Source: an uncultured virus (IMG/VR IMGVR_UViG_3300012665_000858) (Duplodnaviria > Heunggongvirae > Uroviricota > Caudoviricetes). Taken from it: DNA of 64,000 nucleotides. This document shows positions 56,443 to 59,586 of this stretch, piece after piece. The notes beneath the pieces are model-generated. The model saw only the letters and a list, made by a program, of their open reading frames with translations. It did not search any database and was not told where the DNA came from. The translations under genes were made by a program, and so were the position numbers. The stretch lies in IMG/VR virus record IMGVR_UViG_3300012665_000858; one strand, written 5' to 3'. Within the stretch, counting starts at the first letter, position 1. Each line of letters begins with the position of its first letter.

Positions 56443-56877
56443 ATGGAAGAGTTAGCAAAAGCACTTAAAATAGCATTCGCTAGTGAATTTAGTTTTTATC
56501 TAAAGGCACATTATTTTCACTGGAACGTAGAAGGTGAAAACTTTCAACAGTATCATGAACTGTTTGGCGGCATTTACGAAGAAGTATACGGAAACATCGA
56601 TGCGTTTGCAGAAAATATTCGCAAAGCAAATAGTTATACTCCTGGAAGTTTCGAAAGATTTTCAATGTTGTCAAAAATTGACGACGAAACAGAGATACTA
56701 GATGCAAGAACTATGACGTCTGAACTTTTGTCAGACTCTGAGAAAATGGCAGAGATTTTTAAATTAGTATTTGCCATGTCTGAAAGAGAAGGCGAGCACG
56801 GATTATCAGACTTTTTAGCAGGACGTCAAGACGCACATCGCAAACACAGTTGGATGCTACGAGCAACTTTAAAATAA
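56443..56877 (+). CDS. dps: Dps / ferritin-like DNA-protecting protein
   Basis: HYFHWNVEG..F...HELF, D.FAE.IR, K..WML. Confidence 0.92.
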   Translation: MEELAKALKIAFASEFSFYLKAHYFHWNVEGENFQQYHELFGGIYEEVYGNIDAFAENIRKANSYTPGSFERFSMLSKIDDETEILDARTMTSELLSDSEKMAEIFKLVFAMSEREGEHGLSDFLAGRQDAHRKHSWMLRATLK

Positions 56878-56951
56878 TGGAAAACGAATATCCAGTTTAC
56901 CCAGAGGATGATGGCTATGACACTCCAAAAAACCCTTACAGCCCTGTGTAA
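56877..56951 (+). CDS. 24 aa acidic Tyr/Pro-rich microprotein (not in ORF track)
   Basis: TAATG-coupled to dps; MENEYPVYPEDDGYDTPKNPYSPV. Confidence 0.45.
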   Translation: MENEYPVYPEDDGYDTPKNPYSPV

Positions 56952-57093
56952 TAAATTTATCACAGGATTAGCCATATACGGCATTGGCATGAGTTTAGCC
57001 TATGCTGGCTATATTGGACAAAACTACGATCCACAATATGATTGGTGTGACCCTAGATTTTGTTGCCCACCGGGAAACTTAGATGAGAGCTAA
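56908..57093 (+). CDS. possible small membrane/secreted Cys-rich peptide
   Basis: Hydrophobic stretch then WCDPRFCCPP; start uncertain; overlaps the 24 aa ORF. Confidence 0.4.
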   Translation: MMAMTLQKTLTALCNKFITGLAIYGIGMSLAYAGYIGQNYDPQYDWCDPRFCCPPGNLDES

Positions 57094-57370
57094 AGAATTT
57101 ATTACAGAGTCTGCCGCTTGGAGACGCAAAGAAGGTAAAAGCAAGAAGGGCGGATTAAATGCCAAAGGTGTTGCTAGTTACCGTAGAGAGAATCCAGGTA
57201 GCAAACTACAAACAGCAGTGACTACTAAGCCTAGTAAATTAAAGCCTGGCAGTAAGGATGCTAAACGTCGTAAGAGTTTTTGTGCTAGAATGAGTGGAGT
57301 TGACGGACCTATGAAAAAGGACGGAAAACCTACAAGAAAAGCTCTGGCACTAAGAAAGTGGAATTGTTAA
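57083..57370 (+). CDS. basic DUF6321-like protein
   Basis: GGLNAKG...PGSKL...RRKSFCARM...W.C; begins MRAKEFITE|S. Confidence 0.75.
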   Translation: MRAKEFITESAAWRRKEGKSKKGGLNAKGVASYRRENPGSKLQTAVTTKPSKLKPGSKDAKRRKSFCARMSGVDGPMKKDGKPTRKALALRKWNC

Positions 57371-57455
57371 GAACATACCTCAGGACCGTTAGAGGTTATG
57401 TGCCCGGCTGCTGGGCTAATCAACGGATTCGCTACCCTGACGATTTAAAGTGAGC
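57371..57455 (+). ncRNA. candidate structured non-coding RNA
   Basis: GC-enriched intergenic segment with multiple stems and two possible pseudoknot pairings. Confidence 0.45.
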
Positions 57456-57492
57456 TTTAATAAATACATAATAAGAATTTGAGGACAAACAA

Positions 57493-59586
57493 ATGGACAT
57501 TAGAGCAATACTAAACAAATTAGACACTGTAATGGTTTCAGAAGCCATCACCATTAAAGATGTGGAAGCCGCAGTTGCTGGTAAAACAGACGAGCAAGAA
57601 CGTGCTAACATCTTAAATGATATCGCATGGAAGGAAAAACTACCAGGTCTATATGATCCAGTTAGTGGTTATTTTGTTCCTAAACAAGGCCAACCAAACA
57701 GTATGGGTGGAAAATATAATATTTCCGCAACTGCATCGACTAGCGCAGATAAGGCACTGGCCGATATGGGCTTAGTTCCTCAAAATGCAAAAACATCTAC
57801 TGCACTAGGACGTATGTTCCGTGGCGATGACAAGGGTCAACACGATACAGACATTAAAGGTGCCAGCAGTAAGGTTAATATTAAAGCGGATAAACTTCCA
57901 CAATTAAAAGCATTAGTTGATAAGTTAAAAGCGGCTAGCGGCAGTGCAGGTGCTTCTAGTAGCGCAAGTACTGGCACTGGTCTTAAGATGCCGAGCATGA
58001 CTAATAAAGCACCAGGTGCTGGCGGCTTAAAAGTCGGTGAAGAAAGTATCTTTGAATCCTTATTAAAAGAATTTCAAGACATCGTACTCGATCAAGATAT
58101 AGAAGAAGCAGATCCTGCTATTCCAGGCGTGCAAGGCGGCACAGGTACATTGCCTGCTCCTAAAACTGCACCTGCTCCGACTGGTAAAAACAAAGATCTA
58201 GTAATGCAGATTCAAGCAATGATCGATGAATTATCGACTATCGAAGGCGACAAGGACATCGAAGCGGCTGTTGCTGATGCGCAGGCTGCTATTGCCGCAG
58301 ATGCTGAAGCAGAAAAAACTGCTGGGGCGGCATCAGCAAGTGCTAAAGAAGCCAAAGTAAATCGATTAAAAGAATTACTTGCCAAAGCCAAAGAAGCAAA
58401 AGCACCAGCGGCAACTAATGCGGCATCTTTAAAAGCGGCACAAGGCGGTATGGCAGAAAGCATGAGCGACTTTGTTGCTCGTATACAGCGTATTCAAGAA
58501 GGTACAACTCTTTCTGAAGCATTATCATCGGAAGAGTATAAAGAATTGCAAAAATTAGCGGCAGAGTTACAACAAGATTATGCCGATGACACCGAACTTC
58601 AAACATTAACTAAACAAGCATTAGATTTGCCAGTGCCAGCAGGCGGTACAACAGCAGGCGGACCGGGCGAAGAAAAGCCAGGCGAAACAAAGCCCGGTGA
58701 GAAGAAACCAGGTGTAGCAGATCCTGCTATCCAGAAGGTTCAAGAACAATTAAAAGCACTAGGTGTTGATCCTGGTCCGATTGATGGTAAAATGGGTCCT
58801 AAGACAATTGCTGGTATCAAAGCATTTGAAAAGATGGCTGGTAAACCAGAAACTGGTAAGGTTACTCCAGAGTTAAGCACACTACTAGCAGATGGTAAAA
58901 ATATTGTTGCTCGCAGTCAATTAACACAAGCATTAACTGCTATCGAAGCAATCGCTACAAAGTATAAAATTTCTGAATCCATAACAGAAGAAGATGTATT
59001 GGCCATGACTGAAAGTGAAGCCAGAGCATTTGTTATGAAGAATCTTAAGTACTTCAGCGAAGCAGAACAAATTGCAATCACAAGAGATTATTTAAGTGAA
59101 GCACCTGTGCCAGCATTGCCTGGACCTGGTGGAAATAGACTACCAGCGTTGCCTGGCGCACCTGCAGGTAATCCAAATGTAATCGATGTACCATTCAGAG
59201 ATGTTCCTTCAAAACCAAGTTTTGGACAACGTGCTATGGATTTTGTCAAAGGTGCGGCCTCAAAATTAAAAAGTCCTAAAGCATTGGCAGTTGCAGGTGG
59301 TGCATTAGTACTAGGCACATTATGGAAAGCGTTCAGCGGCAATGATGTTCAAATGGATCCAAAAGATCTAGCAGAATTACAAAAGCATTTGAAAGTATTA
59401 GACCAGTACGGTCAAGATCCTGCTATCAAAGCAGGCTTACCTGCGGATGTTCAAAAACGATTAGATGTTGTAATTGGCAAGTTGGGCAAACTTAAAGGCG
59501 CAAAGGCAGCGGCACCTGCGGCGGCACCTGCGGCAGCACCGGCTCCTGGTGCATCAGATGCTATGGGTAATCAACTCGGCGCTTAA
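57493..59586 (+). CDS. large Ala-rich protein with a peptidoglycan-binding domain
   Basis: VQEQLKALG.DPGPIDGKMGPKT..GIKAFE PG_binding_1 motif; TAAATA at 57461 and GAGG SD. Confidence 0.8.
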   Translation: MDIRAILNKLDTVMVSEAITIKDVEAAVAGKTDEQERANILNDIAWKEKLPGLYDPVSGYFVPKQGQPNSMGGKYNISATASTSADKALADMGLVPQNAKTSTALGRMFRGDDKGQHDTDIKGASSKVNIKADKLPQLKALVDKLKAASGSAGASSSASTGTGLKMPSMTNKAPGAGGLKVGEESIFESLLKEFQDIVLDQDIEEADPAIPGVQGGTGTLPAPKTAPAPTGKNKDLVMQIQAMIDELSTIEGDKDIEAAVADAQAAIAADAEAEKTAGAASASAKEAKVNRLKELLAKAKEAKAPAATNAASLKAAQGGMAESMSDFVARIQRIQEGTTLSEALSSEEYKELQKLAAELQQDYADDTELQTLTKQALDLPVPAGGTTAGGPGEEKPGETKPGEKKPGVADPAIQKVQEQLKALGVDPGPIDGKMGPKTIAGIKAFEKMAGKPETGKVTPELSTLLADGKNIVARSQLTQALTAIEAIATKYKISESITEEDVLAMTESEARAFVMKNLKYFSEAEQIAITRDYLSEAPVPALPGPGGNRLPALPGAPAGNPNVIDVPFRDVPSKPSFGQRAMDFVKGAASKLKSPKALAVAGGALVLGTLWKAFSGNDVQMDPKDLAELQKHLKVLDQYGQDPAIKAGLPADVQKRLDVVIGKLGKLKGAKAAAPAAAPAAAPAPGASDAMGNQLGA

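Follow-up and report, generated by a model that had tools for sequence, protein, structure and literature searches.

In the antisense systems CopA/CopT of plasmid R1, RNA I/RNA II of ColE1 and OxyS-fhlA, a small folded RNA carries conserved loops that are complementary to the target, and in RNAs of the OxyS-fhlA type two separate loops address neighbouring segments of it. The phage RNA described here resembles these systems in both respects. Unlike CopA, RNA I and OxyS, its apparent target is the rRNA of the host and not an mRNA or a replication primer, and in contrast to the loop-presenting antisense RNAs as a group, a promoter and terminator of its own were not found and its pairing is predicted from sequence. 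The division of the target is reminiscent of EBS1 and EBS2 of group II introns: one conserved block of the phage RNA (J1) matches the 5′ part of the target, 1917–1931 of 23S rRNA, another (L3) matches the 3′ part, 1929–1937, and each is presented from a separate structural element. Unlike a group II intron, the RNA is only about 90 nt long, has no intron domains and matches no Rfam intron model.

Antisense contact with rRNA is a property of the C/D-box and H/ACA sRNAs and snoRNAs of archaea and eukaryotes, small RNAs that carry 10–15 nt antisense to conserved rRNA. We know of no bacterial or phage example of such a guide RNA. The consensus of the phage family, unlike the C/D-box guides, lacks the C box RUGAUGA (UGAUGA does not occur) and no snoRNA model fits the element; neither a k-turn nor an ACA architecture is apparent. 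The TURBS of caliciviruses are likewise segments of viral RNA that are complementary to rRNA and lie between two reading frames. They are short, target the surface-exposed helix 26 of 18S rRNA and work at overlapping stop/start sites in termination-reinitiation. The phage element, in contrast, begins after a stop codon, the next start in this genome is 122 nt away and the matching rRNA sites are internal; neither here nor at the other loci was a motif found just upstream of an overlapping or adjacent stop and start. Finally, in its size, compact fold, invariant unpaired bases and intergenic location in phages the element is similar to the hammerhead, twister, pistol and hatchet ribozymes, whereas its conserved bases differ from theirs and no Rfam model fits it.

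Structure and covariation of the RNA family

The element was found in a stretch of 64,000 nt from an uncultured tailed virus (IMG/VR record IMGVR_UViG_3300012665_000858), the whole of which is called the window here. Its parts and neighbours are given in Table 1. A preliminary description had taken the segment between the two flanking genes as a candidate multi-pseudoknot non-coding RNA on the basis of five complementarities, all of which are exactly confirmed: ACATACCTC (57373–81) with GAGGTTATGT (57392–401), GCCCGG (57402–07) with CTGGGC (57411–16), AATC (57418–21) with GATT (57442–45), and, as candidate pseudoknots, CCGTT (57386–90) with AACGG (57422–26) and TTCGCT (57428–33) with AGTGAG (57449–54). 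The first three correspond to conserved helices with compensatory changes (P1, P2 and the outer part of P3). The conservation and covariation in related phages on which that description had made its case depend proved strongly positive, and the covarying helices bear out a structured non-coding RNA. The multi-pseudoknot architecture is unsupported, with the pairing of CCGUU and AACGG failing across the family.

Table 1. Positions in the window of the RNA element, its parts and nearby genes
Feature	Position	Strand	Remarks
Folded RNA element	57369–57456	+	About 90 nt; family members about 90–110 nt
A-rich 5′ edge	57369–57372	+	Overlaps the TAA stop (57368–57370) of the upstream DUF6321 ORF
P1, 5′ strand ACAUACCUC	57373–57381	+	Pairs with 57392–57401
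J1 loop block AGGACCGUUA	57382–57391	+	Exact complement of E. coli 23S rRNA 1917–1926
P1, 3′ strand GAGGUUAUGU	57392–57401	+	One bulged U; pairs with 57373–57381
P2 hairpin	57402–57416	+	Stem 57402–05/57413–16; seven-base loop GGCUGCU, 57406–12
CGGCUGCUGG in the P2 hairpin	57405–57414	+	Complement of 16S rRNA 518–527
P3	57418–57445	+	Outer stem 57418–21/57442–45; inner pairs G57425-C57437 and G57426-C57436
P3 nine-base loop AUUCGCUAC	57427–57435	+	From the window aligned to the covariance model
UUCGCUACC in P3 (L3)	57428–57436	+	Complement of 23S rRNA 1929–1937
Conserved 3′ tail AAAGUGAGC	57447–57455	+	Retained where the search left the tail free
Late-promoter-like word AATAAATA	57459–57466	+	For the downstream gene; outside the RNA
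Upstream gene, DUF6321 domain protein, 95 aa	57083–57370	+	Pfam PF19846, E = 2.2e-22; variable neighbour
Downstream gene, peptidoglycan-binding domain, 697 aa	57493–59586	+	Pfam PF01471; variable neighbour
Dps/ferritin-like gene	56443–56877		PF00210; near the RNA
ORF of 3118 aa	19514–28870		Repeated tail-fibre-like segments (PHROG tail fibre families); no Pfam match
ClpB/ClpA-like double AAA+ ATPase, 746 aa	44862–47102		Phage-encoded

The fold of the single window sequence is no better than chance. Its minimum free energy is −21.3 kcal/mol compared with −20.0 ± 3.1 for shuffled sequences (z = −0.42, 68 of 200 shuffles equal or better), and the minus strand gives a similar value (z = −0.53). 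In single-sequence partition functions, the conserved blocks are not especially exposed, with an unpaired probability of 0.41–0.65 against 0.45 for the whole RNA. The evidence for structure comes from the relatives. An exact 27-mer of the element is present in eight viral contigs, where the element is 91%–96% identical to that of the window and the flanking genes 77%–85%; 54 consecutive bases (57402–57455) are invariant in all nine aligned sequences of the window and its eight closest relatives. One group of these relatives shows a compensatory change in P1, CCUC/GAGG to CCCU/GGGG, and two compensatory pairs are found in hairpin 2 of a more distant relative, whose downstream protein is 56% identical.

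The family pattern GGACC-N(30–55)-GATTCGCTAC-N(8–16)-AGTGAGC matches at least 120 viral contigs. Together with the other loci collected there are at least 134 matches and at least 106 unique sequences; 102 sequences, unique over a slightly shorter span, form the alignment used below. RNAalifold on this MAFFT alignment returned P2 and a two-part P3, in which 8 of the 12 pairs show changes on both sides. A covariance model built from the alignment found exactly one match per locus in each of the 100 loci searched, out of more than 130 with the element that were available. In the alignment to the model, P2 is paired in 99.3% of cases, the outer helix of P3 in 95.3% and the inner helix in 91.5%; since it is fitted to the model this alignment leans toward structure, and the MAFFT alignment gives the same picture. 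Three outer pairs of P2 have changed on both sides in 29–45 of 100 members, and such changes are seen in each of the two P3 helices. The covariation score of the whole structure is 0.535, compared with 0.147 ± 0.009 for shuffled alignments, none of which (0/500) reaches the observed value, and it is at most 0.128 when the partners are slid.

P1 is paired in only 55% of cells in one fixed register because its register shifts and a hairpin is optionally inserted. Its own 3′ strand nevertheless forms a better duplex (mean −7.14 kcal/mol) than do foreign strands (−4.85 kcal/mol), and the two strands co-vary, as in AUCAUCC/GGAUG, UUCGCC/GGUGAG, UUGCC/GGCAA and AGCC/GGCU. Among the variable pairs, 46 cells are G-U or U-G and 7 are A-C or C-A, which indicates that the RNA is read from the plus strand, the same as the neighbouring genes. 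The lengths of the 102 elements fall into all three classes modulo 3 (42, 36 and 24), so the element is non-coding.

The first of the proposed pseudoknots can form its pair between columns 25 and 85 in 31 of 102 sequences, and its score of 0.047 equals that of shuffled columns (0.049). Column 85 covaries instead with column 97 of the inner P3 helix, with which this pseudoknot clashes. The second, between UUCGCU and the tail, is invariant in the alignment, as the search pattern had fixed both of its sides. Five aligned members with other P3 loops (L006, L008, L078, L069 and L215) keep the tail AAGUGAGC while their loop lacks UUCGCU. Tertiary pairs between UGCU of L2 and AGCA of the tail, or between the tail and L3, were also considered and rejected, since the L2 variants GGCUUCU and GGCUACU occur with no compensating change in the tail. 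A sub-class with a different apical loop of P3 is represented by L006:5729–5836, L078:2982–3090, L215 (minus strand, approximately 1094–1203) and L008:5741–5842; the loop is GGGAGUCGUGCCCC in three of these members and CCGGGAAU in one.

The most conserved parts in sequence are four blocks: J1 (ACCUUAGGACCGUUA), L2 (CGGCUGCUG), L3 (AUUCGCUACC) and the tail (AAGUGAGCA). The first three lie in loops of the covariation-supported structure and in part overlap P1. The tail, the only block at the 3′ end, is kept in every member found with the tail left unfixed, namely four model matches besides the window, and a second copy in one genome (below). The conserved stretch begins 14 nt 5′ of GGACC and ends 1 nt past GAGC. 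In 100 upstream flanks, A is found at −14, −13, −11 and −10 relative to GGACC in 64%–77%, nothing is conserved beyond −14 and no conserved promoter is present 5′ of the element.

The preliminary description could match the RNA to no known family, and this agrees with the Rfam scan that it had suggested. None of the 4227 models of Rfam 15 matches anywhere in the window at gathering scores. At E ≤ 10, the region 57200–57600 gives only two weak matches, both outside the element, and at E ≤ 1, ten member loci of more than 130 (24,378 bases) likewise give two, both elsewhere than the element. ARAGORN found no tRNA or tmRNA gene in the window. There is no U tract, and no terminator-like site was detected in 56800–57700, as expected from the earlier remark that the element is not a plain terminator. 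That the element represents a conserved gene for a structured RNA, borne by an uncultured clade of giant phages, is near certain.

Genomic setting and distribution

As judged from its sequence, the window belongs to a T4-related phage; its genes include those for a clamp loader, a DsbA-like regulator, a gp43-type PolB, a baseplate wedge, tail fibre proteins and a DNA ligase. Within the family, the element starts at a median of 3 nt past the upstream stop and ends at a median of 26 nt before the next start (range 1–187 nt); in the window, the stop at 57368–70 and the start at 57493 enclose the 122 nt mentioned above. The neighbours vary widely. Upstream ORFs from 104 loci fall into 39 clusters, the largest being Dps-like proteins (23) and the cluster with the DUF6321 ORF of the window (18), and downstream ORFs from 115 loci fall into 43, led by the peptidoglycan-binding protein of the window (22) and a DsbA-like protein (15). 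The element is gene-like, and neither a repeat nor the leader of one particular gene. A repeated regulatory element was rejected because a search for a 22-mer of it that allowed up to 3 mismatches gave a single site in the window, and all pattern loci are on distinct contigs.

Even among the closest relatives the upstream side differs. Compared with seven of the eight, positions 56953–57360 of the window are a 408-bp insertion, comprising most of a 61-aa ORF and the DUF6321 gene; the end of this insertion is only a few bases away from the 5′ edge of the RNA. The seven have 54 bp in its place, and their element lies directly 3′ of a Dps/ferritin-like gene; the eighth, L084, keeps the gene. The DUF6321 frame of the window is open for 26 codons past its TAA stop, to 57448, with an internal ATG at 57398. 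Read-through of this stop or a small ORF was rejected: changes in close relatives upstream of the internal ATG are non-synonymous, the 54 invariant bases show no nucleotide change, against a divergence of ∼20% in the flanking genes, and the lengths occupy all classes modulo 3.

The element had been placed upstream of a late promoter, which is plausible given AATAAATA just beyond its 3′ end; this word, with its core ATAAATA, we take to be a T4-type late promoter. Of 102 unique members, 21 have ATAAATA in the 45 nt that follow the element, compared with 0.8% of random 48-nt stretches. Immediately after the RNA (57460–57466 in the window) the word is ∼26-fold enriched and often lies 0–4 nt past GAGC. 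This enrichment is compatible with a late promoter that directly adjoins the RNA at its 3′ end.

The model search gave one copy in four of five viral records of 262–353 kb. The fifth record, a complete genome of 352,754 bp, has a second, weak copy of 33.5 bits at G153:C1:76924–77019 (locus L225:925–1020). It keeps L2, most of L3 (UCGCUACC) and the tail, and has a plain hairpin in place of the GGACC block. With blastn, a 2-kb query matched ten records, all within the DUF6321 gene, and the element of a member gave no match at E ≤ 10. The top-ranked cultured records by PolB were those of giant phages, namely Sinorhizobium phage Phosso, Agrobacterium phage Atu_ph07 and Escherichia phage 121Q (44%–50% aa identity); in these three, among the best of 2663 PolB-matching records, the model had no match better than E = 0.9.

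In bacterial genome contigs, the RNA was found only in two metagenome-assembled genomes (MAGs) of Bacteroidota, titled Lishizhenia and Haliscomenobacter. A third genome-contig match, on a Prevotella contig, was dismissed as a chance match inside a coding-like stretch. The MAG loci are L215, L217 and G001:C58:7845–7929, and one MAG has two different members, each on a contig of its own; this suggests that these are binned phage contigs. Among 151 genomes of the MAG’s phylum the RNA occurs only in the MAG from which the search started, indicating that it is phage-borne. The MAG occurrences possibly hint at Bacteroidota as hosts.

Complementarity to ribosomal RNA

The conserved blocks are antisense to rRNA, a property that the preliminary description had missed. 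With the E. coli rrnH operon as the reference and positions counted from the annotated gene starts, the majority consensus of J1, ACCUUAGGACCGUUA, is the complement of 23S 1917–1931; the family consensus ACCUUAGGACC is the complement of 1921–1931, and CUACCUUAGGACC of one lineage that of 1921–1933, while the AGGACCGUUA of the window covers the stretch given in Table 1. L3 (UUCGCUACC) overlaps the J1 target, so that J1 and L3 together are antisense to 21 consecutive bases, 1917–1937. L2 (CGGCUGCUG) is the complement of 16S 519–527, and its loop GGCUGCU also that of 23S 1070–1076; the AGUGAGC of the tail is the complement of 23S 1099–1105, which alone is not significant. We assign 23S 1917–1937 to helix 69, of which it forms the 3′ side, together with the linker that follows, and 16S 519–527 to the 530 loop. 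That the conserved loops are antisense to both 23S and 16S rRNA points to a role in base pairing.

Complementarity to 23S 1917–1937 is well beyond chance. Over a run of 15 positions, the most frequent base of the family is the complement of the rRNA base opposite it. The consensus has a longest complement of 15 nt and a sum of 24 for the best two segments falling within 25 bases of the target. Neither value is attained by any of 1000 dinucleotide shuffles, whose maxima are 13 and 19. The matches of L2 (9 nt) and the tail (7 nt) are not significant alone, as shuffled sequences commonly reach 8–10 nt. Within 23S 1916–1933, 98 of 100 members have 9–15 contiguous complementary bases, most commonly 12 (44/100), and the J1 register depends on the lineage, being 1917–1927, 1920–1931 or 1921–1933. 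When 50 of 100 members (every second row of the model alignment, A3) were scanned for duplexes against 220 rRNA windows, the best site lay in 23S 1890–1945 for 34, in 16S 495–540 for 5 and elsewhere for 11. A search of the window itself for possible phage-internal targets gave, for the complements of the four blocks, near-matches at chance level only.

Because the first pattern had fixed GGACC, a second search used L2, L3 and the tail as its only anchors. J1 is present, with at most one change in UAGGACC, in each of the 110 unique sequences among the matches listed: 98 have UUAGGACC, 6 have another base before UAGGACC, 1 has a further variant of GGACC and 5 have CCUUAGGGCC, an A-to-G change that keeps a G-U wobble with U1923. 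The target is also widespread. The 21-nt stretch of E. coli recurs unchanged in 43 of 101 genomes of the MAG’s phylum (reversed control, 0), and the other genomes of the phylum probably lack an assembled rRNA operon.

The commonest variants of J1 have U changed to C three bases before GGACC (11/98), which breaks the pair with rRNA and is compensated inside P1. L3 is replaced by unrelated loops of the GGGAGUCGUGCCCC or CCGGGAAU type in 5 of 100 aligned members, and in L006, L008 and L069, the three checked, nothing complementary to E. coli rRNA reaches 8 nt at the replacement loop. In L006 and L008, J1 comprises 13 nt of 23S complement.

Possible roles of the RNA

The reading that we tentatively prefer is a phage RNA that pairs with the rRNA of its host. 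J1 and L3 would, probably if still provisionally, pair with the helix 69–70 stretch of 23S rRNA, and L2 perhaps with the 530 loop of 16S rRNA. The blocks follow each other as 5′-J1...L3-3′ in the RNA, and the target segments as 5′-1917–1931/1929–1937-3′. The geometry is therefore that of a bipartite two-loop contact of the group II EBS2/EBS1 type and not of a simple linear antisense RNA, and the two loops may bind neighbouring target segments in the manner of the exon-binding loops or of OxyS. Early in infection or midway through it, the RNA might be transcribed together with the gene upstream and perhaps released from that transcript by cleavage, and it would then act in trans, its loops pairing with host rRNA. 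The target bases are presumably paired, helical or buried in mature ribosomes. Nascent rRNA or late assembly intermediates would be the likeliest target because the region is, judging from assembly studies, then still unfolded, and ribosome maturation or function might be blocked or redirected. Giant T4-related phages may in this way encode a dedicated ‘anti-ribosomal-RNA’ RNA that acts on the assembly or function of the host ribosome through RNA–RNA pairing, a suggestion we make with reserve. Counting against pairing with rRNA are the J1 variants compensated in P1, the swaps of L3, the paralogue with no GGACC, the matches of L2 and the tail that are not significant alone, the blocks that single-sequence folding does not show as exposed, the presumed burial of the target in mature ribosomes, and the promoter and terminator of the RNA’s own that were not found.

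Several of these points would be accounted for if the invariant loops of a structured RNA served a protein partner or tertiary contacts, as in a scaffold, a regulator or a processing signal, the likeness to rRNA being due to mimicry or to ancestry, in the latter case from a captured antisense piece of rDNA. Such a role would allow L3 to be swapped and one paralogue to lose GGACC yet keep L2 and the tail, it fits with the absence of a significant rRNA match for L2 and the tail, the most universal blocks, and with the compensation of J1 variants inside P1, not toward rRNA. It leaves unexplained a complementarity to 23S 1917–1937 far above chance, which is moreover kept in shifted registers across lineages, something that ancestry alone would not maintain; nor is there a linked partner gene, the neighbours being spread over 39 and 43 clusters. 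We consider this explanation rather unlikely, although it deserves weight.

The setting of the element between two genes also raises the question of a cis-acting role in a polycistronic mRNA, in which ribosomes would be held or recruited through rRNA pairing to drive translation of the downstream gene. The element does share the orientation of its neighbours, usually sits close after one stop and before the next start, and has neither promoter nor terminator of its own that could be found. A device of this kind is improbable, however, in view of the usual single copy in genomes of 262–353 kb with hundreds of gene junctions and of the wide differences among the upstream and downstream genes. 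Between the element and the gene that follows there is often the late-promoter-like word, so that late transcripts of this gene would not include the element. The stop and start that enclose the element in the window are 122 nt apart, and the rRNA sites are presumably at the subunit interface or decoding centre and not on the surface. The preliminary description had inferred a ribozyme-like or protein-binding RNA. That the element is a small self-cleaving ribozyme of a new class, or some other processing signal that separates transcripts, is very unlikely: known small ribozymes are often found between co-oriented phage genes, where this element lies too with a compact multi-helix fold and invariant junction and loop bases, but no Rfam ribozyme model fits it (E ≤ 10 on the window, E ≤ 1 on ten members), no candidate cleavage site can be named and the rRNA complementarity is left unexplained.

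Phages alter host translation with proteins, among them modifying enzymes and phage-encoded ribosomal proteins. A full-text literature search found, as far as its results could be consulted, no description of such an RNA or of a phage RNA directed against rRNA. Whatever becomes of the rRNA reading, the element defines a large orphan RNA family, absent from Rfam and nearly a core gene of an uncultured clade of 260–350-kb phages. If the pairing with host rRNA is true, it would represent a new principle of host takeover, in which the invariance of the target would let one RNA design serve for any bacterial host. The RNA would then be a natural antisense ligand for the highly conserved and functionally central bridge region of helix 69, and a possible tool to probe late assembly of the 50S subunit.
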